Source: Candidatus Saccharimonadota bacterium (GTDB lineage: Bacteria; Patescibacteriota; Gracilibacteria; Absconditabacterales; Absconditicoccaceae). From it: a stretch of 32,000 nucleotides of DNA. Made by a program: the position numbers and the translations under genes. The notes under the pieces are model-generated. The model saw only the letters and a program-made list of their open reading frames with translations, had not been told where the DNA came from and searched no databases. This document shows, in pieces, positions 1,340-31,420 of the stretch. The stretch spans positions 660,001 to 692,000 of the forward strand of contig CP006913.1 in the NCBI GenBank assembly GCA_000503875.1. Direction: 5' to 3'. Every line of letters starts with the position of its first letter. Position 1 is the first letter of the stretch.

Positions 1340-1774
1340 ATGAAGTGCCCAAAATGTAACAACATGGATACTAAGGTTATTGACTCAAGAAGTATAGAAG
1401 CTGGTCAAACTATCAAACGTAGAAGAGAATGTGAATTTTGCAATAACAGGTTTACTACTTTTGAGAGAAGATGAACTACAGAACTTATTGTTATCAAAAA
1501 AGATTGAACCAAAGAAATGTATGATAGACAAAAGTTAAAAAAAGCGCTTCTTCTTTCTTTTGCCAAAAGAGATATCAATCAAGAAGAATTAGAATGACTT
1601 TTAAACAGCCTAGAAACTCAACGATCTAGTGATTGAAATGAAGTAACATCAGTACAAATTTGAGATGATATACTCAAATCACTAAAAAAAATAGATGCAG
1701 TTGCCTACATAAGATTTGCTTCTGTTTATAGATCATTTAATAACTTAGAAGATTTTAAGAAATTTATAGACTAA
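1340..1774 (+). CDS. nrdR: transcriptional repressor NrdR (144 aa)
   Basis: N-terminal CPKC...CEFC zinc ribbon, RRRECEFC and FTTFER motifs, and C-terminal [13 protein letters not shown] (ATP-cone). Five in-frame TGAs, two at positions that are Gly in remembered NrdR sequences (KKD-G-TKE, VQI-G-DD). Confidence 0.9.
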
Positions 1775-6744: not shown

Positions 6745-7527
6745 ATGATAGGATTTTTCGATAGTGGATTTGGCGGCTTACAAACGATGAAAGACTTCCA
6801 AGAACGCTACCCACAATACAATTATATGTTTCTTGCAGACAGCAAAAACTGCCCCTTTGGAGCCAAAGATGGAGAAACAATTAAACAACTCACCTTTGAT
6901 GGAATACAGCGATTATTTGACCACGGCGCAAAAATAGTTATCCTGGCTTGTAATACGGCTGCTGCCTACGCAGTAAGAAGTCGACAAACACAATATCCAG
7001 AGAAAAAAGTGCTTTCGATAACTATTCCTGGAGTAGAAAAGATTCTTACTGAAGAACACAACGAGAGAAAAATAGGAATTCTCGCTACACAAGCGACAAT
7101 TTTATCAAATATTTACACCGATCTTTTTCATAAATTTGGAGGAAAAAACAATCCTGATTTCCAATTTATTATGGCTCCAAAACTTGTAGAACTTGTAGAA
7201 TCTGGGGAAACCAACGAAGAAGAAATTGAATTTATTGTACAAGAACACATCAACAAATTTCACAATATTGATACACTTATTTTGGGTTGCACACACTTTC
7301 CTATTTTGATAGAACATATCAAGAAATTTTTTACCGGAGATATTATAGATCCGTCCAAAGAAGCTGCGATTCAATTTGGAAATTACCTGGAAAGACACCT
7401 AGAGATCAAGGACCAACTGACATCAGGTGGACAAACTACGTACTACACCACCTGATCCCCAGAAATATTTTCTACCATAGGCTCTAGAATCGCAGAAAAA
7501 CAAATCACTGCCCAACTTATTGAGTAA
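6745..7527 (+). CDS. murI: glutamate racemase MurI (260 aa)
   Basis: FDSGFGGL, ACNTAAA and GCTHFP motifs. One in-frame TGA at 7453-7455. Ends at TAA 7525-7527. Confidence 0.9.
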
Positions 7528-8699: not shown

Positions 8700-8948
8700 A
8701 TGCAAAAGATCTATACCCAATGTCAGTCCTGCGGCATGCCTTTGAAGATGGACAAAGGAAATAGCGGTTCACTGATATACTGTAGTTCATGTTACAAAAA
8801 CGGTAAATTTACTTATCCAAACATATCACTAAAGGAAATGCAGAAGCTAGTCAACGACATATTAAAAAAGGAAATGAAGCGACGAGGTTTTTTTAGATGG
8901 TTAGCAGTAATGCAAATACCGAGATTAGAGAGATGGAGGAAAAAGTAG
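8700..8948 (+). CDS. zinc-ribbon domain protein (82 aa)
   Basis: CQSCGMPL...YCSSCY, two CxxC pairs with the CGMP signature typical of the putative zinc-ribbon family. Confidence 0.65.
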   Translation: MQKIYTQCQSCGMPLKMDKGNSGSLIYCSSCYKNGKFTYPNISLKEMQKLVNDILKKEMKRRGFFRWLAVMQIPRLERWRKK

Positions 8949-9742
8949 TTATTGAAAATTATCCTACAAAGAGTATACTAACACTGCTTTATTATTTATT
9001 CTATTATATGGAAAAAGAACCTTCAACATTACAACAAGAAATAAATACATTAATCACAAAAATTGAACAAGAATTTGATTGAGTTACTCTATGAAACGGA
9101 ATAGGAATTACAGAAGCTATTGCAGTAGATGAATGGTTAGATGAAAATGACAAAGAACGCAAGAAATCAAGAGTATCTGACGAAAGAAATGATCGAAAAA
9201 AATATATTTGCAAAAGAGAGCCAGAAGAAAATTCCTTTGATCATTGGCGATGTTTTTCAGATATTGAATGACGAAGATTCCTTTTACCTGCCTATATGAT
9301 ATCAAGATTAAAAAATTTCTATTTTGCAGATGATGGAATTGTTTTAACAAACTTTGAAAATGAGGAATGGATTAATGAAGAGAATCCTCATAATGAAAAA
9401 TTAGATAGCATGATAAAAGAACTAAAAGAGTTATCCAATGTAGACAAATATAAATCAATGAAAAAAGAAGCATACAATGAAATGATAAAAGAAAGTGAAA
9501 AACTCATAAAAGAAATAGAAAAAGAAAGAAATATCGAGATAAAAGATCCAAAAAAAGATTTTGAAAAGTTATTTTCTGCTGTTTTAACACCTGCACAAAA
9601 AAAAACTATTTTAGACTTCTTAAGTCTTCAAATTAAAATAGCAAATACACAAGAAGTAGCATGAGAACAAGTCGAAGAAAAAGAAAATTTTATAAAATTA
9701 ACAGAAAAGAAAATTAAGTTAGTTAAAAATTTTATAGAGTAA
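8933..9742 (+). CDS. hypothetical protein (~269 aa; start uncertain: 8897, 8933 or 9008)
   Basis: Track ORFs 8897-9082 and 9296-9664 share a frame and are joined by TGAs. Ends at TAA 9740-9742. Lys/Glu-rich, coiled-coil-like C-terminal half. Confidence 0.55.
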
Positions 9743-11691: not shown

Positions 11692-13503
11692 ATGCTCAAA
11701 GAAGACATCATATACGAATTATATCAGTCCCCTAGTCTTGAAAAGCTCAAAGAACTCAAGAAGAATTTTTCTCAAATCAATAAACTCAAAGACTTAGTAA
11801 GTAATGTCGCGTTGATTCAAACCTACCGTGATCTCCTTGCTACGGGCAAGATTACCGCAAACAAAGAAGTCGAGCAATTACTCAAAAAGAGATCCATCAG
11901 ATCTGAGTCGGGAATTGTTGCGGTGCAGGTACTGACCAAACCTTTCTGGTGTCCAGGAAACTGTATTTTCTGTCCCAACGATCCTGAAATGCCCAAGAGT
12001 TACATCAAGACAGAACCAGGTGCTGCCAGAGCTTTGCTCAACCAATTTGACCCCGTTAAACAAGCGTATAATAGACTCAAATCCTTGAATTTATCAGGAC
12101 ATGATACCGACAAAATAGAAATGATCGTCCTCTGAGGGACGTGGGATGTGTACCCAGAAGACTACAAAATCGAGTTTATCAAAGGACTCTATGATGCCTG
12201 CAATACCTTTGATCAATTGGAAATCGACCACCAAGGACTCGATGAAGTGCAAGAAGATAAGAGATATAAATATACCATCACCAACCAAGACACCATCAAA
12301 TACTCCAAAACCATTGAAGAAGCGATCGAAATCAATGAAACCGCTCCCCATAGAATCATCGGATTGACCATTGAAACCAGACCAGAATATGTAACTGACG
12401 CCAATTGCCAGCTCCGAAGAAAACTCGGAGTAACGAGATTGGAAATAGGGATTCAATCTATGTACGATGACGTTTTGGCAGCCAATAAAAGAGGTCATAC
12501 CGTTGCCCAAATCGAAACTGCCTGCCACAAACTCAGACAGTACGGATTCAAGTTTTGCGTGCATATTATGCCAGGACTGTACAAGTCTAGCCTAGAAAAA
12601 GATATCGGAACCTTCCAACAAATATACGATAATCCTTACATCAAACCTGATGAAATCAAATTCTATCCGACATCAGTAATTCCCAACACCGAACTCTTCA
12701 ATCTCTACAAATCTGGTGAATACAAACCTTTGGAAACCGAAGAAATCGCACATATTATCGAGACAACATTGACGACCATTATCCCTCCGTATACGAGAAT
12801 CAAGAGATTGATCCGCGATATTCCTGCAACCGAAATTGCCGCAGGAAGCAACGTAACCAACCTCAATCAACTCGTCCACACCAAATTACAAAACGAACAA
12901 AATCAGAATATCAAATCACGATATCCATTCTTTCAACGCTTATATGGAGACTTCACACAATACGCTACATTCGACGAATATCTAGCCAGCAAAGACGAAA
13001 AACAAACCAGTATTATCGGCGTTGCCCCTGATCTCACCTCTTCGAGAGAGTATATCTCCTTAGACACGAGAAGCAGAGAAATTAGACATAATACCAATCA
13101 CCACGAAGAAACAGCTAACTTAGTTATTAGAAAATATCTCAGCAGCGTAGGCGCTGAGTACTTTATCAGTTTCGAAGATTCATTAGGATATCTCTATGGA
13201 TTTGCCAGATTATTACTCCCGAAAGAAGGTTCAACGATAGACCGAGAATGATTAGGCGCAAATACTGCACTCATTAGAGAGCTTCACGTCTATGGAAACC
13301 TCCAATCTCTCAAAAAAGCAGCTCAAGAACAAGGTGTACAACATACAGGATTTGGTAAACAACTCATGCACATCGCAGAACAAATCGCTCAATCAAAAAA
13401 ATATATCAAACTCTCAGTCATCTCAGGAGTCGGAGTGAAACAATATTATGAAAAAATTTGATATACCAAAGAAGGCACATATGTTGTGAAAAAATTTAAA
13501 TAA
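11692..13503 (+). CDS. elp3: Elp3-like radical SAM / GNAT acetyltransferase (603 aa)
   Basis: Radical-SAM cluster CPGNCIFCP, GGTW (first G is TGA 12133-12135), ETRPEYV, TRLEIGIQS, RLIRDIP, IRELHVYG and a C-terminal GNAT (QHTGFGKQLM, ISGVGVKQYYEKIGY). Joins track ORFs 11692-12135 and 12148-13251 and continues to TAA 13501-13503. Confidence 0.88.
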
Positions 13504-13711: not shown

Positions 13712-15985
13712 TTATTTATATAATGCTTTTACTTCTTCTAATGTAATATCCGGATTAACTCACGCATCCTTCATCAAATCAAATAATTTTTCAATACTAG
13801 AATCAAAACTAGGAATATTGATAGGTAATTTATTTGGATATGGATAGTTATTGTTTACTACACTTTTTTGTAATTCTACACTCTTAAATCCATATTCAAA
13901 ATACGATTTTAATGATGTTTTGGAAAGAACTGCCATCTCTGTATAATTTTTTTTAAGATCAGCTAATAGTGCTTTTTGTGTTTCCAACACTTTAGTATCT
14001 TTTACAATAGATTCTTTCAATGATCTCATTTTTGAAACAATAATATTTATTTGTACCAGAATATCTTTTTCTTTTTGATTTTTTTGTTCTGGAGATCATG
14101 TTAATTTTTTGATCAATAATCTATTTGTATTCTCTTTATCCTTCTGTTCTACTAATGATGTATTATTATTATCAATTCTTTTTTGAATATCATCAACCTT
14201 TATTTGAATATTTTTGATTTCCATTTTTTTAAGTTGCATATGATAACCATAAACAAAAGATTCTATAGCATATTGAGTTGCCATAATGTTATTATCAATA
14301 TAGTCAATTACTTGATTTATTTGTGCAATTTCTTGATTTTTTCTTTCTATATAATTAGTTTCAAAAGATTTTCTTTGTTCCAATAACTGACCTGTTTGAG
14401 TCAAAGCTTTTTCTGTATCATGAAGATTATTGTATAACACAGTAAGTTCATTGATAATTTGAATAACTCTTTTATCGTCTTTCGTTTCTGTCTTTTCTTT
14501 TTCTTTAGCTGCGATAGAAACTTTTATAGATTCAACTGATTGTGTTAATTCTTTCTTTTGTGATTGTAAGCTAACCACATCAGTTTTGATAAATGAATTA
14601 TTATCTTCAAGTTTTAAAATAGCTTCTTTATTTTGGGATAATACTGATTTATACATAGTATAAAGTTTTTCTAATTCTTGAGAATATCTCACATATTCTT
14701 TAAGTAGCTTTTGAACAGTAATTTCTCTTTGTTTGATAACTGATGTTCCTGTAGTAAATTGTTCACTAAGCTTTTCATTTATTTTTTGCAATTCTATTGT
14801 CAAACTATCAATCCCTGTATTATAGAGATCTATTGTTTTTTGAAGACTTATCATTTGTTTTTGAATCTGATTATCTTGAACATCTATTTCTGCTTTTGAT
14901 TCTTGTTTAAAACGATCTGAAATAGCTGAATATTTTTTGTTTTTTTCATCCAATAACAATTTTTGAATATCAGTAAGCTTTGATGCATTTTGATCAATAT
15001 CGTTTTGTTTAACTGGCAGTAAATTACTTTCAATAACTAAATCAGAATCTATGTGTTCCAAAGAATCTGTTATTTCAGTAATTTCTTTTTTGAGAGATTC
15101 ATTTGTTTGCATAAGAGCAACTTTTTTTTGAAAATCATCTTCAGTAATATTTGTTCCCAAAGCCTCATATGTAGTAAATTCTTTTTCAGTATTTTCTTGT
15201 TTAGTTTCTTTATCTTGAAGATCTGAAGAAAGACTTATTTTAGAAGATTCCAAGCTATATACCAATTGTAGCAGTGTTGAATAATCTTGTTGTAAAGAAT
15301 CATTTACTGCAACTTGGTCATTATATACCTGTTCTTTTTCTTGGATACTTGCTTTTGCTTGAGCCAAAAATAGAGCTATAGATCAAGAAGAAAGTAAATT
15401 TTGATTTTGTTTACCTTCTGATTTTTGAGAAAGTAATGCCTTAAAAGCAGTAAATCTTGCTATATATGTATCAATTAGATCATAAGAAATTTCTTTAGGC
15501 CCTGTAGCAAATCTTTCTTCTTTAAGAACAACTACTTTTTGTTTCAAAGAACCAAAAAATGTCATAATTTTATCTACAAAAGGACCTACTTGAGAAGAAC
15601 TTTGAAGAGATTCAGCTTCTGATATAAGTGATTTAATTACACCATCCAAAGAAATTTCTCTTTTTTCTTTAGTAAAAAGAACTTCATGTTCAAATTCTTT
15701 CAAAACTTTAGAAATCATTTCTTTATTTTCTTGCAATTCTTTTTTACCTTCTTCAACTCTCATTTCTCTTTGAATTTCAAGAAGAAGTTGCGTAAAATAT
15801 TTATCTTTTGCAGTCAAAGACTGATCTTTAGCATTCAAAGTAGAATCTTGAACATTTTTATTTTGAGCCATCACTTCATTTGTTGATAATGCTGCAAAAA
15901 GTGAGAAAGTTACTAATAAGGCAGTAAGTTTATTAGTAGAAAAGGAATTGCCTAATGATGAGCGGAGTTTCATGAGTAATACCAT
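13712..15985 (-). CDS. large secreted or anchored coiled-coil protein (~757 aa; alternative start 15973)
   Basis: Track ORFs 15383-15985, 14096-15367 and 13760-14029 share one frame (all low coordinates = 2 mod 3). They are separated only by TGA codons, and both junctions were checked codon by codon. N-terminus MKLRSSLGNSFSTNKLTALLVTFSLFAALSTNEVMA resembles a signal peptide. The rest is Lys/Glu/Gln-rich with heptad-like periodicity. Confidence 0.75.
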
Positions 15986-16162: not shown

Positions 16163-16612
16163 ATGGAATATTGAGAAATTTTAGCACATTTAAAAGCAGA
16201 TCATATCTGCCCTTTTTGCCAAGAAACACATCCTCATATGATTCACGAAAACGAACATATGTATATTATCCCTGCTAGAGCGCCTTATGTCGAGGACCAT
16301 TTGCTTATTATTCCAAAAAGACACGTTATTCTCCTCCAAGAGCTCAATCATCCAGAACTTATTTCTCTTCATGAACTAGTAGATACACGAACAAATAAAC
16401 TTCATACTAAACATGAAGCTGTTAATCTCCTACTAAGAGATGGATTAGCGGATACAGGAAAAAGTCAAAAATCAGTCAATCACCTTCATTTCCATCTTAT
16501 CCCTGACTGCCCTATCTGAGAAAAAACTGGGAAAGGCGAAGCAAATCGTCAATTTCTAGAAGATCATACATACACAATTCTTGCTGAAACTATAAGAGAA
16601 ACCTATAAATAA
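16163..16612 (+). CDS. HIT (histidine triad) family hydrolase (149 aa)
   Basis: NHLHFHLIP histidine triad, N-terminal CPFC, LLIIPKRH. Two in-frame TGAs. Frame-checked from ATG 16163 to TAA 16610-16612. Confidence 0.8.
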
Positions 16613-16641
16613 ATCTAAATTTTTATATAATATAAATAATC

Positions 16642-17106
16642 ATGAATATCTTATTTGTCTGTAAAGGAAATATTTTTCGTAGTATGTCTGCGGAATATCT
16701 CACAAAAAAACATCTAGAAAAAATAGGTATGGAAGCTATCAATGTTTCATCTGCAGGAACTGAAGCAAATCCACAAGCAGCACATCCAACAACAGTAAAT
16801 CGTTTAAAACATTATCATTGCGATCCTAACAATCATACCCAAAGAAAAATTTCCAAAGAAATTTTAGCACAACAAGATCTGATTATCTGTATGGGAAACA
16901 ATCATAGAGAGGTTATCGAAGATATGGGATTCGACTGTTTACTATTTAATGAAATAGCTTTTGATATCTCTACTGATGTTCCTGACATAGAAGAATTCCT
17001 GGCTCCAGGCTATACAGAACAACAAAAATCTGACTATATAATCAAAACGATAAACTATATTCACAACGCTATTCCACACTTGATTGACCATATTATCCAA
17101 AAATAA
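16642..17106 (+). CDS. low-molecular-weight protein-tyrosine phosphatase / ArsC-like (154 aa)
   Basis: N-terminal P-loop ILFVCKGNIFRS (CX5R-S signature). Confidence 0.8.
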   Translation: MNILFVCKGNIFRSMSAEYLTKKHLEKIGMEAINVSSAGTEANPQAAHPTTVNRLKHYHCDPNNHTQRKISKEILAQQDLIICMGNNHREVIEDMGFDCLLFNEIAFDISTDVPDIEEFLAPGYTEQQKSDYIIKTINYIHNAIPHLIDHIIQK

Positions 17107-17131
17107 GCTCCTCCTCCAAAGGAGTTTTTTT
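17106..17131 (+). terminator. Rho-independent terminator
   Basis: CTCC...GGAG hairpin followed by T7. Confidence 0.6.
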
Positions 17132-17194
17132 AATTGTATTTTTGGAGAGAAAGTATAAGATACTCAAGCAATTTTTAGAAAATATAAGAAACCA

Positions 17195-18496
17195 ATGAAT
17201 ACACCAAAAATAGTTGCCCCAGGAGGATCCTACCAAAAAGCTATCGTAGCGAGTACCTACGGAGCCGATGAAGTATATGTCGGGGTTCCGTTCACTTCGC
17301 TAAGAATGAGACAAAACAAGATCACCGGATTCGACGAGCTCAAAAGAACCGTAGATGCTCTGCATGCCCGCGGAACCAAAGCCCTTTTGACGATGAATAT
17401 TTTTCCAAGAAATACCGATATTTCTATCTTTGAGCAGACCGTAGAACGTATCGCTGATGTAGGCGCCGATGCTATTATTTTTTCTGATCCAGGAACCTAT
17501 AAAACTATTAGAAAATATGTACCAAATATGCCACTCCATCTCAGTACACAAACAAGTACCCTCAACTCTGCTTCCGTTGCTTTCCGAAGAGATCTAGGAG
17601 TAAAAAGAGTTGTTCTTGCCAGAGAATTGCACATCGATGAAATCGCTCAAATCAAAAAAGATGTTCCAGATATGGAGCTCGAAGTTTTCGTTCATGGAGC
17701 GATGTGTATGAGTTATTCAGGAAGATGTTTGCTCGGTGATTATATGAATGGAAGACAAGCCAACAAAGGTGAATGTTCTCATTCATGCAGATTTAAATAC
17801 AAAGTACGACTAGAAGAAGAACGCAGACCAGGAAAACTTTTCCAACTAGAAGACGATGAAAATGGCGTTCATATTTTATCATCCAAAGATCTTTGTACTA
17901 TCGATAGACTCGCTGAATTAATGCCCCACGTAGATGCCATGAAAATAGAAGGAAGATCAAAATCAGAATTTTATGTAGGTAGTGTTGTAAAAGCGTATAA
18001 ACATGTTCGTGACGCTATCGTTGCTGGCACGCCAATCGATGAAAATATCAAAAATCTCGTAAATGTAATACCGCATAGACAATATCGATCAGGATTTGTT
18101 TTCAACAAACTCGCCGATTACCCAGAAGGAGAAGAACCGAAACAGAAAAACGAGTCAGTCATTGCGAACGATAGTGCAGCAATCCAGATTGAAACTACAG
18201 AAACCTCGACCACCCTCAACACTGCTGGTCCTCTCTTTAACCGCAACAATTTTTGAGTTTTCTCAGATAAATATATAGAACATAACGGCAAAAAATATTT
18301 TCAAATAGATCCCAAAGAAGTTATCACCAGAGGGATGAAGATTAAATATATCGCAAAAGATGGAATAGGTACGCTAGAAATTCTCGATATTCTCAACAAC
18401 AAAGGAAAAGAGATAGAAAAGGGTGACTGCAATAAACCAGACGTTTATATTTTGACAGATAAAGAACTGACAGGACGAGAATTGTTATATGATTAA
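17195..18496 (+). CDS. peptidase U32 family protein (RlhA/TrhP-type) (433 aa)
   Basis: EVFVHGAMCMSYSGRCLLGDY..GRQANKGECSHSCRFKY is the U32 signature region. VLARELHIDEI also present. Extends past TGA 18254-18256 to TAA 18494-18496. Confidence 0.85.
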
Positions 18497-18499
18497 AGA

Positions 18500-18527
18500 T
18501 TGACTTTTAAAATAAAAAAGATATAAC
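18500..18527 (+). promoter_or_regulatory. sigma70-type promoter
   Basis: TTGACT (18500-18505), 16 nt, TATAAC (18522-18527). Same ATTGACTTTTAA architecture as the promoters at 8199 and 10306. Confidence 0.55.
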
Positions 18528-18576
18528 GCGGATGAAAAAAATAAAAAAAACAAAAAAAATCTAAAAAATCTAGAAA

Positions 18577-18903
18577 ATGAAAAAGATTACATTTATTCCA
18601 TCTCCTACAAGGATAGACAAGATGGATATCAAAACACCTGAAAAAGCCGAAGAATGGATTCAAAAAGGATTCTTTTTGACTGAAAATCTTTTTGAACAGC
18701 TGATTATGGTGTTTAAAGATGTAAAGATCATTTTGGAAAGCGATCAACATCGTATTGGTGAAGACGTTGATCTAGGAACTGAATTAGAGATCATCTCTTT
18801 GACAACAAAAATTCGTTTCCAAAAAGGGTGGTTCTATCTATCAGATCTTTTAGGGTTAGTGAACACTGGCAAAGTGAAGATGACGTTTGTCGTGAATGAG
18901 TGA
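18577..18903 (+). CDS. hypothetical protein (108 aa if TGA 18901-18903 ends it; otherwise read through in frame to 19410)
   Basis: ORF with no internal TGA. The TGA is followed 3 nt later by a strong terminator. Under strict table 25 the frame stays open into the next gene. Confidence 0.5.
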   Translation: MKKITFIPSPTRIDKMDIKTPEKAEEWIQKGFFLTENLFEQLIMVFKDVKIILESDQHRIGEDVDLGTELEIISLTTKIRFQKGWFYLSDLLGLVNTGKVKMTFVVNE

Positions 18904-18905
18904 GT

Positions 18906-18943
18906 AAACAGGGTTTCGGTACTTTCCGATTCCCTGTTTTTTT
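18906..18943 (+). terminator. Rho-independent terminator
   Basis: AACAGGG (18907-18913) / CCCTGTT (18932-18938) followed by a T-run to 18943. Confidence 0.75.
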
Positions 18944-19014
18944 ATATTGCTCTTGTATCTCAACGCTCAATTGATAGAAATAGGACATACATTTTACCTT
19001 ATAACTATTTTCTT

Positions 19015-19410
19015 ATGGAAGAAACCAAAAAAAATTGGAGCATCTATAGAGTTTATCTTCTTATCGCAAGTCTCGTATGACTTATTGGAGGATTAATTTC
19101 TTTGGGTATTGCTCTTACGTCACTAGGACAAAGATTGATTATCACAAACGACGAATATGTAAGAGGCAGAATGATGTATGAACTACAACAATGTAAAGAA
19201 TCATATTATTATGGTAAATCTGCTGATACAAAATGGAGTCCTACTGAAGATCAAATCAAAGAATGTGAAGCAAAAAAAACTGACGATCTTATTTTCGCAA
19301 GAAGATTGGAAGTAAAAGAAACTGTTTTAGGAGGCGGAATTCGAGCAATTCTTTTCGCTGTACTTTTTTTCACTCATTACCCAAGATTTAGAAAAGAAAA
19401 CAACGCATAA
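19015..19410 (+). CDS. membrane protein (131 aa)
   Basis: ATG 19015. TM segment YRVYLLIASLVGLIGGLISLGIALT (one TGA Gly) and a C-terminal hydrophobic segment. TAA 19408-19410 plus terminator. Confidence 0.6.
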
Positions 19411-19428
19411 TTTAAAAAAACAAGAGAA

Positions 19429-19455
19429 GAAGATGCTCCAGGGCATCTTTTTTTA
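19429..19455 (+). terminator. Rho-independent terminator
   Basis: AGATGC (19431-19436) / GCATCT (19443-19448) plus T7. Confidence 0.75.
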
Positions 19456-19514
19456 AAAAATCAAAAAGCATCTGATCAAGGTCGATAGCACAGTGGAAAA
19501 AGGAATTTACACTA

Positions 19515-19660
19515 ATAAAAAAGGTGAGCGTTTACATTTTTAGGTAAGAAAATACATGGAGTCGAATTTGTTTGTGTTTTCTACCGTTAAGAAAATGTAA
19601 CAGCTCACGAGGGGTTTTTTGGTTACTTTTTGACCTGGGAGCAAAAAGTAACATAAAAAA
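19515..19660 (+). repeat. structured intergenic repeat, copy 2 (core 19524-19652)
   Basis: Same architecture as copy 1. Flanked on both sides by ATAAAAAA (19515-19522 and 19653-19660). The apical loop differs (GTCGAAT versus GCCGGT) while the stems are conserved. Confidence 0.85.
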
Positions 19661-19777
19661 TATCCCAGCGGAACGAAAAAAATATATTTAATGCATATTT
19701 TTTATACTTGCAAAAAAGCAATCATTTCACTACCATATACCCAACACCCAACATTTATCACCCAACACAATTAAACA

Positions 19778-20992
19778 ATGCTCCTTATCTGAGATATCCA
19801 TATCACTTCAAAACATAAAGAGAGAATCATTCAAGAACTCAGAGCATATATCAATGCTCATCCATCAGAAAACACTATCATTTTTCTTGGAGACTACGTC
19901 TATCATTTTTCCTATGACAGAACTGCTCTGCTCTCACTTTATCATTTTTTCGTAGAACTTTTTGAACAAGGTAAATCTGTCTATATTCTCTCAGGGAATC
20001 ACGATCGATTGGGAAGTTCTTTCGTCTTCGAAGAAGCTCAAAAAGCATTTTCTATTATTCAAAAATACGACACTAAACACCAAGGAAATCTCCATTTTAT
20101 TACCCAACCAACAGTGGTTACTATCGAAAACCAAAAAATCATTCTCTTTCCTTTTATGCTTCAAGTACCAGAACAACAACCAAAACAACAACCATCTTGG
20201 ATCAAAAATATTGAATATTTAGCAACATCATCCAACAAAAACGAACAAATATCATGGAAAATAAACAATTGTTTGGCAGCGTTGCTTGAACAATATCCAG
20301 ATTCTTTAGTTATCCACCATTATTATTTTAACAAAACCAAATTTCCTGGTCAAAAATCTCAATTTTCTTACAAAGATATCGCACTTAGCCAAGAACTTCT
20401 TGATATGCCAGATATCCAATTTCTTTCAGGACATCTTCATCAAGCATATTCTCACAAAAATTATCTTTGCACGGGAAGTGTACGATCAACTAGCCCTTTG
20501 GAAATTAATCAAGAAAAATTTCTCTTTCAATATGATACTGCAAACAAAACATATAATGCAGATCCCATACGCATCAACCCATATCTTCAATACGATCAAG
20601 GACAAAAAATCTCTCAAGAAACACTAAAAGAGACGATATTTCAACAAACAATCAATAGTAAACAAAATTTTCTTGGAACACAATCTATACAAATAAATAA
20701 TTCTGATTTTATTCCATCGCAATATATAAGCATAACCATCGTTTGAGAAAGTTTAGAATACGAACATATCGAAGAATATATAGAAGATAATCTTCTCAAT
20801 CAAATAGGTCAAATTAAATTAAAAAAACAATTAGTAAACACTAATGAACTTTTGGAAAAGCTTCAACTTTCCTCAGAAGGGAATCAAAGTTTCTCTGATT
20901 GGAAGCAACTTCTCAAAGACTATATTCTCCAAAAATATCAAGGAGAATATCCAGAATACGAAACCATTTTGCAAGAGTTAAAAGTCCTCTAA
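19778..20992 (+). CDS. calcineurin-like metallophosphoesterase, SbcD/Mre11-like (404 aa)
   Basis: Ordered motifs GDIH, GDYV.H, GNHD and GHLH. Joins the upstream part to track ORF 20009-20746 and beyond via TGAs. Ends at TAA 20990-20992. Confidence 0.7.
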
Positions 20993-21007
20993 AAAGTGCT
21001 TCAAAAT

Positions 21008-21036
21008 TTGACAGAAAACATGTTTTTGGATATAAT
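21008..21036 (+). promoter_or_regulatory. consensus sigma70 promoter
   Basis: TTGACA (21008-21013), 17 nt, TATAAT (21031-21036). Confidence 0.7.
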
Positions 21037-21079
21037 TTAAGGGTAAACTGCATATCTCTTTATTATACAAAAACAAAAA

Positions 21080-22186
21080 ATGATAGATTCTTCAGACATC
21101 ATCTTATACAAAAAGAAAGGATTTGACGGTGAAAAATACATCAAACTTCAGAAAGAAGCAATTTTAAAAAGAATTTCTCAATTCAATAAATGAAGATTAT
21201 ACCTAGAAATTGGTGGTAAATTTTTGTATGATACCCATGCTGCCAGAGTACTTCCAGGTTTCATTCCCGAATCCAAAAAACATATTTTTGCTGCACTAAA
21301 AGATGAGATAGAAATACTTTTTTGTGTAAATGCATCCGATATCTTAGCAGATAGACAATTAACTAACCAAGATATCACCTACAAAACTCAAGTACAAACA
21401 TTAATTAAAAGGATAGAAATAGAAATCTGACTCAAACCACATATTGTTATCAATAATATCGATATCCAAGATAGTTTCGATAAAATTTTGGAATTTGAAC
21501 AAGATTTTCAACGTAAAAATTATAGAGTTTGGGAAAGATATAAAATACCTGGATATCCTCATAATACGAAAGGAGTTTTAAGCGAAAGTGGATTCGGAAA
21601 CGATGATCATATCCCTTTGACAAAAAATCTTGTTCTCGTAACAGGAGCTGCTTCCAATTCTGGAAAACTCTCTACGTGTTTAGGACAAATCTACAATGAC
21701 CACCAAATTGGGATAGAATCTGGATATGCAAAATATGAAACATTTCCTATTTGGAATCTTCCATTGAAACATCCAGTAAATTTAGCATATGAAGCAGCAA
21801 CTGCTGATATAAACGATTATAATATGATTGATCCATATCACAAGAAAGCGTACAATAAAGATTCTGTAAATTATAACAGAGATGTTGAAGCCTTTGAAGT
21901 AATTATGGGAATCGTAGAAAAAACTATTTCTAAAGAAAATTTTATGAGTACATATAAATCACCGACAGATATGGGAATCAATGATGCTGGCTTTTGTATC
22001 ACCGATGATGAAATAGTTACCATTGCTTCTCTCGAAGAAATCAAAAGAAGAAAACTTTGGTATCAACAAATGATTGATAGAAATGAATGAGAAACAAAAC
22101 GAACAGAACAATGCAATATATTAGAAAAAGAATGCAATGAATATGCTCAACAAAAGAAATATAATCTTAATCAAAAAATACATTAA
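21080..22186 (+). CDS. UPF0371 / DUF1846 family protein (368 aa)
   Basis: N-terminus [48 protein letters not shown] matches the remembered family signature. Joins track ORFs 21224-21430 and 21488-22090 (all in the same frame). Confidence 0.75.
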
Positions 22187-23117: not shown

Positions 23118-23732
23118 ATGATAACACTACCACAACTTCCTTTTGCAAATACTGCTCTAGCTCCAATTATAGAGAGCAAAACAATTGACCTCCACTACGG
23201 AAAACATCATCAAGGATACGTAAATAAACTCAATGAATTGATCAAATGAACTCCTTTCGAAAACTCGGATTTGGAAACAATTATCGCAAGCGTTGACGCT
23301 TGACCAATATTCAACAATGCCGCCCAAATCCGAAACCACACTTTCTATCGAAATTCTCTTCGCTCTGCTTTAGAAAACAATTTACCTAGCGATGACTTCT
23401 TGCGAGCCATAGAACAAAAACGAGGATCTTTTGATGCGTTTAAACAAGAATTTATCACCAAAGCCACCAATAACTTTTGATCAGGTCGAACCTGGCTCGC
23501 AAAAACACCACATAATGAATTAGAAATTATCAATACCTCAAATGCTGGAACCCCTCTCAGACAAGAAACAGTAATTTGAAATAAAGATTGAATAGCATAT
23601 ATTCCCCTCTTTACTATTGATGTTTGGGAACATGCTTATTATCTAGACTATCAAAACCGCAGACCAGATTATCTCACCAACATTCGATCCCTCATCAACT
23701 GGAGTTTCGCAGAAAATAATTTTAGTAAATAA
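23118..23732 (+). CDS. sodB: Fe-type superoxide dismutase (204 aa)
   Basis: [17 protein letters not shown]-x-NHTFY-x-NSL, FGSG-x-[21 protein letters not shown] and NI-x-SLINW, where x is CGA at positions that are Trp in E. coli SodB. Several TGA Gly codons. Confidence 0.92.
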
Positions 23733-24415: not shown

Positions 24416-25585
24416 ATGAAAAAATATCTTGCTTGAATATACGTTATATTGGGAATTCTTATCTGATTTTTTTGATATCAAGAATTTTCCAAAACACCTG
24501 TAATAAACAATCAAAACTATGAACGTTTTTGAGAAGTTTTAACAACTCTTCAAAATTTATACTACGATCAAGAAAAAATCAATACATGAGAAATGATAGA
24601 AAATGCTATAAAAGCATACGTAGACGCTCTAGAGGATCCTTACACATCGTATTTAGATGCAGAAACCAATTCTGGATTCCAAGAAGAGCTTAAATGAGAA
24701 TCAAATTTTGAAGGAATATGAGCGGTGATCAGCAAAAAAGATTATTACGTTCTTGTAGAAGAAGTCATCAAAGATTCTCCAGCTTTCAAAGCAGGTGTGC
24801 AACCATTAGATAGGATAGTCTTTATTGGCTCTGGAGAAACCAAAAATCTTTCGATCAATGAAGCAGTAAAACAAATTAGATGACCAAAATGAAGTATCGT
24901 CTCAATATTAATAGAAAGAGTAAATAAAGATGAGACCAAAGAACTTTTGGAAAAGAAAGTAACAAGAAATACTATATCTGTTCCTTCTGTTACAAGCAAA
25001 ATATTAACTTGAGAAAAAAATATTGGATATTTGGAAATATCTGTCATAGGCGAAGAAACAGAAAATCTGCTCAAAAAAGAGCTTCTCAGCTTCAAAAATC
25101 AAAAAATACAGGGAATTATTATCGATCTTAGAGGTAATGGAGGCTGATTTTTGCCTATAGCAGTTGAGATAGCATCACATTTTGTACCGAAAAAAAAATT
25201 AATTGTTTCTTCAAAATACAAACAATTATGAGAAGAAGAATTCTATTCTAGAGGTTACGAAAGTTTAAATGTCCCTGTTGTAGTGCTCATAGATGGTTTC
25301 ACTGCTTCAGCTGGAGAAATTATCGCGCTTGCATTACAAGAACAAATAGGATCAAAACTTATAGGAACTCAAACATTTTGAAAAGGTTCTATTCAAACTA
25401 TGGAAGACTTCGATGACTGAGCATCACTCAAATATACTATCGGAAAACGATATAGTCCAAGTGGCAAAAATATCGATAAAATAGGTATTACACCTGACAT
25501 TGTACTAGAGTTTGATAGTGAAGCATACAAAAATAATATCGATAACCAACTAGAAAAAGCAAAAGAAACACTCCTAAATATGTAA
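24416..25585 (+). CDS. ctp: S41 family C-terminal processing peptidase, membrane-anchored (389 aa)
   Basis: N-terminal TM segment, then YVDALEDPYTSYL, FEGIGAVI, a PDZ-like segment, DLRGNGGG, DGFTASAGEI, TFGKGSIQ and GITPD. Absent from the standard-code track because of about 20 in-frame TGAs. Confidence 0.85.
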
Positions 25586-25970: not shown

Positions 25971-26537
25971 ATGCGCCACTTTGATCAAGAATTGATTAAA
26001 AAGCTCAAACAACAAGATCACTCAGCGTTCAACACCTTCTATCTAGAAACTGTTGATATGTTTTCTCGTTATATAGAAGCCAATTATTTTATAAATACAC
26101 AAGATGCTCAAGATCTCATTGCAGATTTTTACGTAAAATTTCGAGAATGAGTAAAAAAATACGATGAAAATCAATCTTTTTCCTGATATTTTCGAACTGT
26201 TTTTAAAAATCTTCTAAAAGATCATTTCAAAAAAAATCATGATATCCCTTTTACTGATTTGGTTGTAGAAGATCAAGATATGACATTTGAAGAAACACTT
26301 GTTGATGAAGAAGAAGTTATAGGAGATCTTTTACAAAAAGATTTTGAATTAACAAAGATACAACAAGCAATGAAAGATCTAGATGATTGAAGTAGAGATA
26401 TTATTTATTGGAAGTTTATAGAAGAAAAATCAAATGAAGAAATTGAAATATTATTATGAATATCAAATGACAATGTAAGACAAAGAATCTCTAGAGCGAT
26501 TAAACAACTCAAAGCCCGCCTAGAAAACTTGCTATAG
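25971..26537 (+). CDS. sigma-70 family (ECF-like) RNA polymerase sigma factor (188 aa)
   Basis: Region 2: DLIADFYVKF-x-EGVKKYD....FSGYF-x-TVFKNLLKD (x is CGA at the usual Trp positions). Region 4: ILLGISNDNVRQRISRAIKQLK. Entirely missing from the standard-code track. Confidence 0.8.
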
Positions 26538-26740
26538 CATAATTATAAAATCATTTTAAAAAAAGTCAACATATGTTCATTAAAGAACAGAACAAAAAAA
26601 AACAGATAACCTAATTATAAAGCCAATTATAACAAATAAATAAGATTTTCTGCTTTTCTTGAAAAATCTCTTGAAATAGCTGTCCTGTATACTAATATCT
26701 AGTAGTACAACACAATTTTATTTTATAACAATTGTACACA

Positions 26741-27016
26741 ATGACAAAGACAGCTCTTATTGCTAGCTTGGCTGAAGAACTTGGAGTTTCTAAGAAACTT
26801 GCTGCTGAATTAGTTAACGCTTTCATCGACACAGTTATTGCTGGTGTTAAAAAAACAGGAGAAGTTAGAATTCAAGGTTTCGGAACTTTCAAAGCTTCAA
26901 AAAGAAAAGCTAGAGAAGGTGTTAATCCACAAAACCCATCTCAAAAAATCAAAATTCCTGCAATGAAAGTTGTTACTTTCAAAGCTGGTGCTGATTTCAA
27001 AGCTGCTGTGAAATAA
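26741..27016 (+). CDS. hup: DNA-binding protein HU (91 aa)
   Basis: MTKTALIASLAEELGVSKK......GFGTFKASKRKAREGVNPQNPSQKIKIPAMKVVTFKAG is a classical HU/IHF fold sequence. The track start at 26732 is a TTG, so ATG 26741 is preferred. Confidence 0.9.
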   Translation: MTKTALIASLAEELGVSKKLAAELVNAFIDTVIAGVKKTGEVRIQGFGTFKASKRKAREGVNPQNPSQKIKIPAMKVVTFKAGADFKAAVK

Positions 27017-27040
27017 TTTCTTTCTTCACACACTTCAAAG

Positions 27041-27610: not shown

Positions 27611-28234
27611 ATGGGATATGATAGTAAACATGTAGAAATAAAATCACCTCAAGAATGATATAATCTTATTGCTGATGAATATGGAAAATATCATAAACAT
27701 CTCGATTCATTCGATAAGTGATTTTTTCAAAGAATTCTTCCTAGAAAAATTGATGATATGCGTATTATTGATTTAGGAGCTGGTGATGGAAGAATGCGAA
27801 AATTTTTTAAAGATAGTCCTATTAAACAATATACAGCTTGTGATATTTCAGAAAAATTACTTAAAAAACATCCAGGTACAAAAAAAGTTGAAAAAATAAT
27901 TTGTGATTTAGAAAAAGAACTACCTTTTCAAGACAATAGTTATGAATTAGCTATTTCTTTCTTTGTTTTGGAACATATAGATAATATCCAATGATTATTA
28001 CAAGAAATTTATAGGATATTAACCCCAGGAGGACAACGAGTTATTGGTCATTTTTTACAAAGACGTGAATTTCTTTGGAAAAAAGATAAAGAAATATTTA
28101 AAATAGAATTATTTAATCATAGAATTCAAGATATAGAAAAATTAGCTAAAGAAAATTTTTTCTCTGTAGAAATATTTCCCATTGCAGAAAAATGAACAGT
28201 TATTTGATATGTCATTTCATTAAGAAAAGATTAG
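27611..28234 (+). CDS. class I SAM-dependent methyltransferase (207 aa)
   Basis: Motif I IIDLGAGDG, then FVLEHI and LTPGGQ-x-VIG. Joins track ORF 27758-27994 on both sides. TAG 28232-28234 lies within the terminator stem. Confidence 0.75.
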
Positions 28235-28835: not shown

Positions 28836-29963
28836 ATGAAATTAGCAGCTATTCATTGTTGGGTATCACCATGATGAGCTTTGGAAGTATTAAAAGACCT
28901 TATAAAAGAAGAAAATAGAATTTCATGATTTTCTGATATCAAAATTTTTACCAGTTATAGTGAAATTGAGACAATTCTTATCGATAATAAAAAAATAAAA
29001 ATAATAACCGCTATTCCAAAACGATTAAATATATTTTTCAAACGAAATACCAAAAAAAAGATCCCTATTTTAGGTCAAATATTTGACTATCGTAATCTTA
29101 TGTTTTTTTATCCGCTTTTGATGAAGATAATTTCTCGAAAAATAAAAAGATATAAACCAAACAAGATTCTGATTTCTTCTTTTGCTATCGCCAAAAATAT
29201 CCAACAATGTAAAACAATTTCAAAAGAAAATATAGATACAACATTGTATCTTCACTCCCCTATGCAATATATTCGAAGTCATAGCCAAGAATATCAACAA
29301 AAACTCACTGGACGAAAATGACGAATATTTAGAAAAATCACTCCTCGTTTACAAAAACGAGACCTCCAATATACAAAATATGATAAAGTATATTCCAATA
29401 GTACGTATACAAAAAACCTTGCGAAAAAAATATACAATATAGAAAGTGAAGTAAAATATCCAAAAATAAATCAGACTTTCTTAAATGAAAATATAATAAA
29501 GGAACCCCAAGAATATATAGTTTGTGTATGAAGAATCGTAAAATTTGTAAGAGAAATTGACCTTATAGTAAAAGCATTCAATAAGTTAAACTATCCTCTA
29601 ATAATTATTTGAAGTGGTCCTGACGAAAAAGAAATAAAGAAACTAGCGCAAAAAAACATCACTTTCACGGGCCGAAAAGATCCAATAACTATGATAGATA
29701 TAATAAAAAATGCCAAATGAACAATAAACATGACAAAAGAAAGTTTTTGAATATCTACAGCAGAATGTTTGTGTTTATGAGTACCAGTACTTGGATATAA
29801 TGAAGGTGCTACGCCAGAATTAGTTGATAAAGAATCTTGAATTCTTATTAAAAATAAGACAGACAATGATATAATTACCGCTTTTAAGCTATTTATTTCA
29901 ACAAAACGAGATAGAAACAAAATAGCAGCACGCGCAAAAACAATTTTTATTCAAAAACAATAA
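28836..29963 (+). CDS. GT4-type (group 1) glycosyltransferase (375 aa)
   Basis: C-terminal KESFGISTAECLCLGVPVLGYNEGATPELV (the E..G....E....G.PV signature) and IIIGSGPDEKEI. Many TGA and CGA codons. Contains track ORF 29100-29321. Confidence 0.75.
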
Positions 29964-29966
29964 TAC

Positions 29967-30713
29967 ATGATTCAAATACGATTATATGCATTAGGAAGTA
30001 CATTTATAATAAGTCTTATAGCTCTTATAGGAATTGTATTTCTAGGATTTCACCAAGAAAAACTCAAAAAAATTGTTATTTACCTAGTAAGTTTTTCTGC
30101 AGGAGCTTTGTTATGAGACGTATTTATTCATCTTTTACCAGAAATCGCAGAAAATGGTTTTTCTCTTCAAACATCTTTATTTGTTTTGGGAGGAATTTTG
30201 TTTTGACTTATCACCGAAAAAATAATCCATCGAAATCACTGTCATATGCCAATAACAAAGCATCACGTCCATCATTTTGCAGTTATGAATTTAGTAGGAG
30301 ATTTTGTTCACAATATCATAGATGGACTGATAATTTGAGCTAGTTATTTGATAAGTATTCCCGTAGGAATAGCGACTACCCTAGCGGTTCTTCTTCATGA
30401 AATACCACAAGAAATCGGAGATTTCTGAGTATTAATTCACGGAGGAATGTCCAAAAAAAGAGCGTTATTTTTAAACTTTCTTACAGGATTAAGCGCTATA
30501 ATATGAGTAATTATTGCTCTATTGATTAATGACTATACAAACAATATTACATCATTTCTTATTCCATTTGCAGCAGGATCATTTATTTATATTGCAGGAT
30601 CAGATTTAATTCCTGAACTTCACAAAGAAAATAAATTCTGACAAGCTTCATTACAAATCATCGCATTTACAATGGGAATTGGAATTATGTTACTTCTACT
30701 TTTAGGAGAATAA
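29967..30713 (+). CDS. ZIP family metal (zinc) transporter (248 aa)
   Basis: GDFVHNIIDG and HEIPQEIGDF motifs, a His-rich loop HCHMPITKHHVHH, and multiple TM segments. Largely invisible in the standard-code track. Confidence 0.85.
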
Positions 30714-30746
30714 AAAAATCCTGCTTCATTATACATAAGCAGGATT
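30712..30746 (-). terminator. Rho-independent terminator (strong on the minus strand)
   Basis: 10-bp stem AATCCTGCTT (30717-30726) / AAGCAGGATT (30737-30746). The plus-strand A7 (30712-30718) gives a U7 run on the minus strand. Confidence 0.8.
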
Positions 30747-31243
30747 CATTCTTTAGATGTATTAATTCGACGTATTCTCTTTTTTATATAACGAATAAAT
30801 ATATTAACAAAACCAAAGAGAAGTACACCAATAAATGCAATTATAGCCCCATTCTTAATATTTTCTGGAGTTATTCTATCTCTATACCAAAAGAGAAATA
30901 ATCTAGCTACGTAAAAAAGGTAAATTGAAAAGAAAATAGCTAAACCATCTGCCAAAAGATATATCCAAAATAACGATTTCACAGAAATAAATTTAAAAAA
31001 AGCACGTACGGTCTGAGATTTTCTAAATCGGATCTGTGCCCACATAAGAAGACCAAAACCTACAATTACAAATTCAAAAAATATACTCAAAAACCGAACC
31101 CATTTTGTTGTTTCTAAATCAATTTTTCCCAATCGATACTCTGCAAAAAAAGCAAGAGAGTTAATAATGAAAAATATCAACAAAAGAAAAATAATAGATA
31201 ACTTAGAAAACAAAAACAATTTTAGTTTCTTTAGCTGTTTCAT
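30746..31243 (-). CDS. multi-pass membrane protein (165 aa if TGA 30748-30746 ends it; strict table 25 extends it to TAA 30589-30587)
   Basis: ATG 31243 with four or more hydrophobic segments. The frame after the TGA runs 53 codons antisense into the ZIP gene. Confidence 0.55.
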   Translation of the reverse strand: MKQLKKLKLFLFSKLSIIFLLLIFFIINSLAFFAEYRLGKIDLETTKWVRFLSIFFEFVIVGFGLLMWAQIRFRKSQTVRAFFKFISVKSLFWIYLLADGLAIFFSIYLFYVARLFLFWYRDRITPENIKNGAIIAFIGVLLFGFVNIFIRYIKKRIRRINTSKE

Positions 31244-31420
31244 ATTTTATATATTTTTATTTATACAATAAGCATATATATTTACAAATCAAAATCAACA
31301 GAAGTCAATTAATCTGACTTTCCCTTTCTTTTTGAAAGAAAAACCATAGAAATTACGAAGCCCTATAAAAGGGCAAAATTCTATAAAGAATAAAAAACAA
31401 TTTTATACTTACAAAAAAAT

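Follow-up and report, generated by a model that had tools for sequence, protein, structure and literature searches.

CGA as a probable tryptophan codon, besides UGA as glycine, in 32,000 nucleotides of an Absconditabacterales (SR1) genome

The stretch of DNA analysed here, called the window in what follows (32,000 nucleotides, positions 660,001 to 692,000 of contig CP006913.1, assembly GCA_000503875.1), belongs to the species of RAAC1_SR1_1 (SR1; GTDB UBA5124 sp000503875, order Absconditabacterales; Candidatus Absconditibacteriota according to NCBI), and its G+C content ranges from 0.27 to 0.37, being near 0.30 overall. Our main conclusion is that this organism very probably reads the codon CGA as tryptophan instead of arginine, most of the remaining doubt going to a possible ambiguity of decoding. 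We propose this reading because four independent tests agree, namely the residues found in the corresponding columns of homologues from outside the clade, Pfam bit scores, the exchange of codons among orthologues and the published Codetta call. As far as sequences can tell, the CGN box appears to be split, CGU and CGC remaining Arg codons and CGA and CGG having passed to Trp, in the case of CGG on thin data. A first-pass annotation of the window, made from the letters alone, had proposed CGA as Trp in addition to UGA as Gly, and all four tests bear it out; its claim that the window shows the reassignment directly is fair for evidence at the sequence level and goes too far if biochemical evidence is meant.

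The finding itself is already known. Shulgina and Eddy (eLife 2021, PMC8629427) predicted that CGA and CGG both became Trp codons in the whole Absconditabacteria clade, on the basis of Codetta, tRNA identity elements and BUSCO alignments, and this is the Arg to Trp prediction for Absconditabacterales that the first-pass annotation had correctly mentioned. Figure 4-source data 1 of that study lists GCA_003543185.1 and RAAC1_SR1_1, both with UGA as Gly and CGA as Trp. The former, labelled 'Candidatus Gracilibacteria bacterium', failed the GTDB quality check (CheckM completeness 0.50, GC 0.31) and has '?' as the Codetta call for CGG; the same calls are given for RAAC1_SR1_1, as are the same counts of tRNA genes with anticodons ACG, GCG, UCG and CCG. 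The tRNA genes reported for GCA_003543185.1 are 0 with anticodon ACG, 1 with GCG, 1 with UCG, 1 with CCG and 1 with CCA, and its codon usage per 10,000 is 289 for AGA, 45 for CGU, 12 for CGC, 25.4 for CGA, 1.7 for CGG and 56.3 for UGG. A NAR 2026 paper (PMC13092985) takes the reassignment as established, and a 2026 preprint calls it 'computationally predicted'. What is added here is an analysis of codon exchange in syntenic orthologues that spans about 32 kb, a table of the individual sites, the evidence from a CGG codon in MurD and a local CGA:TGG ratio of 49:40.

The columns of homologous proteins were examined above all in the gene of an Fe/Mn superoxide dismutase (SOD), whose open reading frame (ORF) runs from the ATG at 23118 to the TAA at 23730-23732 and is interrupted by five in-frame TGA codons under translation table 11. 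The protein was aligned with 120 database homologues and columns were counted over about 97 of them, mostly from outside the clade. The relatives mentioned in the list of SOD sites are five syntenic loci found through SOD homologues (L004, L005, L008, L009 and L010); a sixth, L006, is identical to the window and comes from a second assembly of the same organism.

23118-23732, plus strand: Fe/Mn SOD gene, 204 codons, with 5 TGA (read as Gly), 6 CGA and 3 TGG; domains Sod_Fe_N and Sod_Fe_C
23331-23333, plus strand: CGA at residue 72 (AAQI-x-NHTFY); outside homologues W in 89 of 97; CGA in 5 of 5 relatives
23349-23351, plus strand: CGA at residue 78 (HTFY-x-N); outside homologues W 78, F 11; CGA in 5 of 5 relatives
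23403-23405, plus strand: CGA at residue 96 (DDFL-x-AIE), the exception, the column being polar and variable; outside homologues D 30, A 25, E 16, K 13; relatives CAA in three, GAA in one, CGA in one
23421-23423, plus strand: CGA at residue 102 (QK-x-GSF); outside homologues W 43, F 36, Y 5
23487-23489, plus strand: CGA at residue 124 (FGSG-x-TWL); outside homologues W in 88 of 97
23685-23687, plus strand: CGA at residue 190 (TNI-x-SLINW); outside homologues W 76; TGG in relatives L004 and L010

The SOD alignment has eight columns dominated by Trp, and in the window five of them are encoded by CGA and three by TGG. The probability that at least five of the six CGA codons fall in such columns by chance is 1.2e-7 (hypergeometric test). 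The two columns dominated by Arg, at residues 181 and 182, are encoded by CGC and AGA respectively, and in the proteins aligned here no CGA codon was found in a column where outside homologues conserve Arg. The four sites at 23331, 23349, 23487 and 23685, which had been assigned to Trp columns from the sequence alone, are thus present as described (W in 76 to 89 of about 97 homologues), while the sites at 23403 and 23421 had been missed, the first of these being the one in the variable polar column. We also considered whether the most conserved Trp sites favour CGA, and this was ruled out, since invariant Trp columns of SOD use both CGA and TGG; moreover, Trp-type conservation among the relatives is nearly equal at CGA sites (93%) and at TGG sites (94%). 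If CGA still meant Arg, with proteins that tolerate Arg in place of Trp or with genes that are decaying, five invariant or near-invariant Trp residues of SOD would be Arg. The public translations of this protein (P0001, P0002) do carry R at all six sites, and the protein of the window equals the RAAC1_SR1_1 SOD at all residues except those encoded by CGA, which are R in the database entry.

The exchange of codons among orthologues provides a test that is independent of any profile. Besides the close set of five syntenic relatives, a distant set of 12 further Absconditabacterales loci was collected through MurD, so that up to 17 loci were available in all, with amino-acid identities to the window from about 37% to 97%. 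In the close set, the codons found opposite those of the window were the following.

Opposite window CGA (144 codons): CGA 109, TGG 21, CGG 4, CAA 4, TAT 3, TTT 1, GAA 1, GTA 1
Opposite window TGG (70 codons): TGG 41, CGA 24, CGG 1
Opposite window AGA (418 codons): AGA 308, AAA 62, AGG 9, CGA 0
Opposite window CGT (74 codons): CGT 53, CGC 10, CGA 0
Opposite window CGC (59 codons): CGC 28, CGT 26, CGA 0

From these counts it is evident that the commonest change of CGA is to TGG, two substitutions away, while the change from CGT to CGA was never seen in the close set. Under the standard code the latter would be silent and should be common, so that its absence argues against CGA as Arg. When all loci are considered, 194 codons lie opposite a window CGA (CGA 141, TGG 29, CAA 5, CGG 4, TAT 4, TTT 2), and none of them encodes Arg or Lys. 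CGA was found opposite a window AGA in 2 of 185 cases in the distant set, which makes 2 pairings with CGA among 808 codons opposite AGA, CGT and CGC over all loci. Comparing the changed codons of CGA with those of CGT and CGC, according to whether the partner is of Trp type or of Arg type, gave a Fisher p of 4e-18, and a second Fisher test on the codon-exchange data gave p = 1e-23. A mitochondrial contig (L159), in which CGA occupies the Arg positions of the cox3 motif 'WWRDVIRE', served as a negative control for the method.

Each protein was also scored twice against Pfam, with CGA (and CGG) translated either as W or as R. Over 20 families the net difference is about +57 bits in favour of W. 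The largest gains are those of Sod_Fe_C (+14.7), DUF6714 (+10.2), Sod_Fe_N (+10.1) and Sigma70_r2 (+7.5), followed by Peptidase_U32 (+5.1), Radical_SAM (+4.5) and Peptidase_S41 (+4.3 and +3.5 for two proteins), and smaller ones were obtained for OBG (+1.7), HIT (+1.5), Mur_ligase_M (+1.2), Zip (+1.0), Methyltransf_11 (+0.7) and Metallophos (+0.1). As controls, translating genuine AGA codons as W cost 41.8 bits in the U32 protein, 17.3 in sigma region 4, 10.5 in S41, 10.4 in DUF6714 and 6.6 in SOD, and translating the three TGG codons of SOD as R cost 17.1 bits; CGA sites therefore resemble TGG sites in their response and are the opposite of AGA sites. A CGA that still encoded Arg would have to be reconciled with this loss of about 57 bits, with its free exchange with TGG, with the fact that it is not swapped with AGA, CGT or CGC in the close set, and with genes that are intact, syntenic and conserved in at least five genomes, and we give this explanation hardly any credence.

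How CGA and CGG may have come to be read as Trp is outlined by the model of Shulgina and Eddy (PMC8629427), according to which the clade is without tRNA-Arg(ACG) and apparently without TadA, so that no inosine-containing tRNA ties CGA to CGU and CGC; the tRNAs with anticodons UCG and CCG have G73 and no A20 and are expected to be Trp acceptors, and a low GC content had made both codons rare. In what we take to be the most likely mechanism, which follows this model, the Arg codons of the CGN box would be read only by tRNA(GCG), which would serve CGU and CGC, and CGA and CGG would be left to the dedicated tRNA(UCG) and tRNA(CCG). These two would be charged by tryptophanyl-tRNA synthetase (TrpRS) and not by arginyl-tRNA synthetase (ArgRS), because they lack the Arg identity base A20 and carry the Trp marks G73 and A1:U72. 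The switch would have been affordable once low G+C had made the two codons rare, and CGA could later have spread through synonymous exchange with UGG. Both the charging by TrpRS and its tolerance of U or C at position 34 and of G at position 36 are inferred.

We looked for the tRNAs themselves in metagenome contigs, which were scanned with a pattern for tRNAs with a U/CCG anticodon and without A20. Among the matches listed, at least 12 contigs carry a near-identical tRNA(CCG), with GC between 0.27 and 0.32, and L213, fetched through the uracil-DNA glycosylase (UDG), is one more (L093, L100, L119, L136, L142, L152, L154, L160, L165, L186, L201, L210 and L213). The 12 scan contigs require TGA as a sense codon, their ORF coverage being 0.0-0.45 with TGA as stop and 0.76-0.93 with TGA as sense. 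The tRNA reads AAGGTCG-TA-GCTC-ATCGGTA-GAGC-A-GTGGT-CTCCGAA-GCCAT-GTGYA-GTAGG-TTCAATT-CCTAC-CGACCTT-G, and it has A1:U72, G73 and U20 (hence no A20), which are Trp identity marks; in its acceptor it has the same features as the tRNA-Trp(CCA) located 3.8 kb away on two contigs. The UDG and RecG proteins of L165 and L152 match entries named Candidatus Absconditabacterales, and the genes of these two contigs use CGA at a UDG position where 109 of 110 homologues have W. In the RecG-UDG neighbourhood of the window organism (L214) a tRNA-Trp(CCA) with A1:U72 and G73 lies beside the RNase P RNA, and neither tRNA(UCG) nor tRNA(CCG) was found there. In the window, in the six syntenic relatives and in the 12 loci fetched through MurD, no tRNA was found by ARAGORN and Rfam, and no Rfam family was found in the window.

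The same scan also met contigs of mitochondrial type (L159, L094, L120, L095, L167 and L190), with nad, cox and atp genes or tRNA arrays, TGA as Trp and a normal tRNA-Arg(UCG). L159 and L095 were rejected as sources of an SR1-type tRNA(UCG), being mitochondrial genomes, and so were L167 and L190, which are tRNA arrays from a genome with UGA as Trp. The RNA gene beside UDG varies with the Absconditabacterales lineage: in three lineages UDG is immediately preceded by tRNA(CCG), in L214 it has DUF378, tRNA-Trp(CCA) and RNase P RNA beside it, and in L212 tRNA-Trp(CCA) likewise abuts RNase P RNA (L165 6930-7849; L201 6659-7564; L213 9906-10678; L214 13126-14677; L212 6484-10687). The Absconditabacterales UDG (L165 7175-7849) shares 64-68% of its residues with UDGs of Bacteroidota (Chitinophagales, Bacteroidales), which is unusually close and may reflect horizontal transfer.

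Some observations weigh against CGA as Trp. The identity elements of bacterial TrpRS are normally C34, C35 and A36, so that a UCG or CCG anticodon would need a relaxed or altered recognition by this enzyme. A tRNA(UCG) was found neither in the window nor in some 400 kb of related loci, which yielded only CCA and CCG species. Among the matches listed in the pattern scan there was likewise none of SR1 type, the UCG genes being otherwise organellar tRNA-Arg(UCG) genes, and the pattern narrowed to UCG gave one irrelevant match, in viral contigs; since tRNA(CCG) did match the pattern, the UCG species probably has a different D-arm or anticodon loop. No peptide or biochemical proof of Trp at CGA was found in the searchable literature. 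Five Pfam families favour R, namely DUF1846 (-0.7 bits), ATP-cone (-0.8), Zn_ribbon_2 (-2.2), Glycos_transf_1 (-2.6, stemming from two C-terminal CGA sites) and Asp_Glu_race of MurI (-3.2). We do not read these as counter-evidence, because variable columns always penalise a rare W and the family models are broad; on direct alignment the MurI sites fall in F/W/Y and L/I/W columns, and the NrdR site opposite a Leu. Finally, a minority of CGA and CGG codons occupy variable columns of polar residues, to which Arg is suited equally well or better: SOD residue 96, residue 280 of the glycosyltransferase (S/N/K in solved structures) and residue 171 of a relative's UDG, the last being a CGG (Q/K/R). 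Residue 341 of DUF1846, which in the relatives is TAT, TAT, CAA or CGA, may be placed beside them: here, as at SOD residue 96 and UDG residue 171, the codon is one transition from a Gln codon (CAA to CGA, CAG to CGG), and the simplest reading of these three sites would be a Gln-to-Trp substitution at a tolerant surface position.

The polar columns (SOD residue 96, glycosyltransferase residue 280, UDG residue 171) would also fit an ambiguous decoding, with CGA mostly Trp and a fraction Arg or another amino acid in a reassignment still in transition, and Shulgina and Eddy (PMC8629427) have stressed that only experiments can exclude it. The same might be said of the CGA:TGG ratio, which differs by gene set, as it would if one codon were costlier or less accurate. 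In the credible genes of the window the ratio is 49:40, while in positions 1-22064 of L214, which are 22 kb of core genes (FtsH, RecG, DnaB, AspRS, GatB, ClpP) of the same organism, it is 16:43 (Fisher p = 0.0012), in agreement with the published genome-wide 25.4:56.3 per 10,000; the regions of the relatives syntenic to the window are also rich in CGA, with CGR (CGA or CGG) making up 0.46-0.77 of the Trp codons. Against ambiguity stand the 194 codons opposite CGA, none of which is Arg or Lys, and the published inventory, which holds no tRNA-Arg able to read CGA, and the polar cases are equally explained by Gln-to-Trp changes at tolerant sites; we therefore assign it a small probability. The difference in ratio may be due to gene class, to expression or simply to sampling. 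A bolder view, which we consider rather unlikely, is that most Trp codons of this genome region are already CGA, while CGA is in the minority in core genes, and that such a gene-class bias reflects an inequality of CGA and UGG in decoding speed or accuracy. Possible causes of such an inequality are a residual ambiguity at CGA, a limited supply of tRNA(UCG) or the misreading of UGG by tRNA-Gly(UCA).

The other departure from the standard code, UGA as Gly, is confirmed for the window organism as far as sequence comparison allows. There are 147 in-frame TGA codons in the window; ORFs of at least 100 codons comprise 16,695 codons with TGA as sense and 6,686 with TGA as stop; and TGA lies opposite GGN in 87 of 298 orthologue codons and opposite TGG in none. 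Concerning CGG, the first-pass annotation had counted a single in-frame codon (31062-31060, minus strand) and held that CGG could not be judged here. The count was mistaken, since it overlooked the CGG of MurD (6298-6300), and the ORF of the codon that it named is at best a putative gene. This minus-strand ORF (30587-31246) is membrane-like, with 3 CGA, 1 CGG and 4 TGG, and we left it out of the counts because it has a weak match in one relative only (L008) and extends over the 3' end of ZIP. The spacing between ZIP and Obg (30587-31420) is about 700 bases in the window and about 80, 35 and 110 bases in L004, L009 and L008 respectively. The MurD codon is TGG in six of 12 relatives, and in the others CGA (one), CAT (two), TAT, TCA and AAA; relatives also carry CGG opposite a window CGA four times. 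CGG as Trp thus appears to be supported, although the data are thin.

Outside SOD, the credible genes of the window that bear CGA or CGG are the following; together they hold, with SOD, 49 CGA and 1 CGG.

3-1334, plus strand: clade-specific protein, N-terminus outside the window; CGA 225, 873, 1098 and 1209; TGG in relatives at 3 of 4 sites
1340-1774, plus strand: NrdR; CGA 1622-1624 (residue 95), opposite a Leu of E. coli NrdR and beside an Arg; CGA in 4 of 4 relatives
1771-3258, minus strand: second S41 peptidase; CGA 1888-1890 (residue 457), at the same motif position as in the first S41; CGA in 6 of 6 relatives
5401-6642, minus strand: MurD; the sole CGG in a credible gene, 6298-6300 (residue 115)
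6745-7527, plus strand: glutamate racemase MurI; CGA 6910-6912 (residue 56; TGG in 3 relatives) and 6982-6984 (residue 80)
8897-9742, plus strand: DUF6714 protein; CGA 9194, 9248 and 9272, with a Pfam score 10.2 bits higher for W than for R
11692-13503, plus strand: Elp3-like radical SAM/GNAT protein; CGA 12415 (TGG in 2 relatives), 12919 and 13243
17195-18496, plus strand: Peptidase U32 family protein; CGA 17585, 17807, 18086 and 18476; TGG in relatives at 3 of 4 sites
24416-25585, plus strand: S41 C-terminal processing peptidase; CGA 25448-25450 (residue 345), opposite the W of B. subtilis CtpB 'LYKWLTPNG'
25971-26537, plus strand: ECF-type sigma factor; CGA 26142-26144 (residue 58) and 26193-26195 (residue 75)
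27611-28234, plus strand: class I methyltransferase; CGA 27797 (TGG in 4 of 4 relatives) and 28037 (TGG, CGG and twice CGA in relatives)
28836-29963, plus strand: group-1 glycosyltransferase; 9 CGA (29022, 29043, 29136, 29274, 29313, 29322, 29358, 29673, 29907) and 1 TGG
Further CGA sites within 16163-22186, plus strand: HIT 16388; membrane protein 19342; metallophosphatase 20006 and 20483; DUF1846 22100
Further CGA sites to the right: ZIP 29979 and 30231; Obg 31760
Further CGA sites to the left: Zn-ribbon 8880 and 8883; DUF2807 11529

The credible genes have 50 in-frame CGR codons, and orthologue data are available for 46 of them: 19 are TGG in at least one relative, 18 keep the same codon and 9 have other codons (CGG, aromatic, Gln or Glu). 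Among the sites listed together at the end, HIT 16388, membrane protein 19342, metallophosphatase 20483 and ZIP 30231 are TGG in at least one relative, and no relative has an Arg codon at any CGA site of the HIT, membrane protein, metallophosphatase, DUF1846, ZIP, Obg, Zn-ribbon and DUF2807 genes.

Several of these sites had been singled out from the sequence alone as conserved aromatic positions. In the sigma factor both CGA codons do stand at aromatic positions, which are Y/Y/W and Y/Y/F in solved ECF sigma factors, and TGG is found in L005 at one and in L004 and L008 at the other; the register proposed for 26193 was wrong, as the invariant Trp of 'WL' aligns with Tyr73, two residues earlier. 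Both S41 assignments are upheld, that of 25448 by CtpB and that of 1890-1888 (minus strand) by its motif position and by +3.5 bits for W. The U32 codon at 17585 is TGG in relative L005, in agreement with the proposal; the U32 protein gave no match to solved structures. For the glycosyltransferase codon at 29274, CGA is retained in 3 of 3 relatives, and the support is limited to them. The motifs in which Arg is conserved (KRRRE, QNRRPDY, RLIRDIP and RQRISRA) use AGA, CGT or CGC only, exactly as had been stated.

It should be asked at this point whether CGA might encode a different residue that is bulky and hydrophobic or aromatic (Phe, Tyr or Leu), which is what outside homologues have at some sites: F, Y, L or I occur at the sigma factor sites, at MurI residue 80, in NrdR and at SOD residue 102. 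In MurI, over 150 representatives, the column of residue 56 holds F 65, W 25 and Y 25, and that of residue 80 holds L 61, I 49 and W 14. Where a single residue dominates a column, however, that residue is W (78-92% in SOD, 99% in UDG); the swaps among orthologues are 29 to TGG against 4 to TAT and 2 to TTT, and Codetta infers Trp for GCA_003543185.1. The probability that we leave to this explanation is very small indeed, and Trp is the assignment that we retain.

In the glycosyltransferase, the CGA codons are kept in 3 relatives, except that 29136 is TGG in two and TAT in one, and that 29907 is CGG in one. If CGA is Trp, this protein would have 10 Trp in 375 residues, 9 of them through CGA; 7 of these lie in its N-terminal half, for which neither Pfam nor solved structures gave a match.

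Sense-codon reassignments had not been known in bacteria until 2021, and the change of CGA and CGG to Trp is one of five that were predicted. Conceptually the window brings nothing new, and its value lies in the correction of annotations and in test peptides. The public translations of these window genes are all wrong at Trp positions: the NCBI entry for the RAAC1_SR1_1 SOD has Arg at the six CGA codons, and in the ENA/Logan entry these six Arg are accompanied by Trp at each of the five TGA (Gly) codons, as if table 4 had been used for the translation. Homology searches, structure prediction and proteomic searches are therefore distorted. An 'R' in the Trp columns of database SOD homologues marks other members of the clade. 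Peptides of SOD are clean test sites: if CGA is Trp, a tryptic peptide spans ...AAQIWNHTFYWNSLR, and if CGA is Arg, the products are ...AAQIR and NHTFYR.

Other features of the window were noted on the way. The gene of a low-molecular-weight phosphatase (16642-17106), without TGA and without CGA, is encoded identically on contig DPJE01000003.1 (462 kb) of GCA_003543185.1, in the ENA assembly of SRR944699 (PRJNA167727, sediment metagenome) and on a Logan contig. A minus-strand ORF at 26695-27033, the longest at that place, was rejected as an artefact, the real gene being HU (Bac_DNA_binding) at 26741-27016 on the plus strand; the antisense frame is open and seemingly 'conserved' in the relatives only because HU is conserved. 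A coiled-coil-like protein (13715-15985, minus strand, 757 codons) has no Pfam match, contains neither CGA nor TGG codons and is about 50% identical in the relatives, while neighbouring genes are 70-95% identical.

Compared with known systems, what we describe is the same phenomenon in the same clade as the Absconditabacteria system of Shulgina and Eddy (2021), and nothing in it is different in kind. The code of NCBI translation table 25 (SR1, Gracilibacteria) has UGA as Gly, as here, but keeps CGA and CGG as Arg, so that its use puts Arg at Trp positions of the translated proteins; that table leaves all codons but UGA standard, and the window departs from it in that CGA behaves as Trp. The change of CGG to Trp in Anaerococcus and in the RFN20 Bacilli (Onthovivens), and that of CGG to Gln in Peptacetobacter (PMC8629427; PMC13092985), are similar in that an Arg codon of the CGN box has been captured by a tRNA of changed identity in a low-GC genome. 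In those lineages, however, CGG alone changes, and CGA, being decoded by tRNA(ICG), has kept its meaning of Arg, whereas in Absconditabacteria both CGR codons change because the clade is without tRNA(ACG) and uses tRNA(UCG). More distant likenesses are AGG as Met in Enterosoma-type Bacilli and CUG as Ser or Ala in yeasts, which are likewise sense-to-sense changes where the anticodon is decoupled from the charging identity; they differ in codons, amino acids and lineages, and the reassigned codon there is common or known to be ambiguous (PMC8629427).

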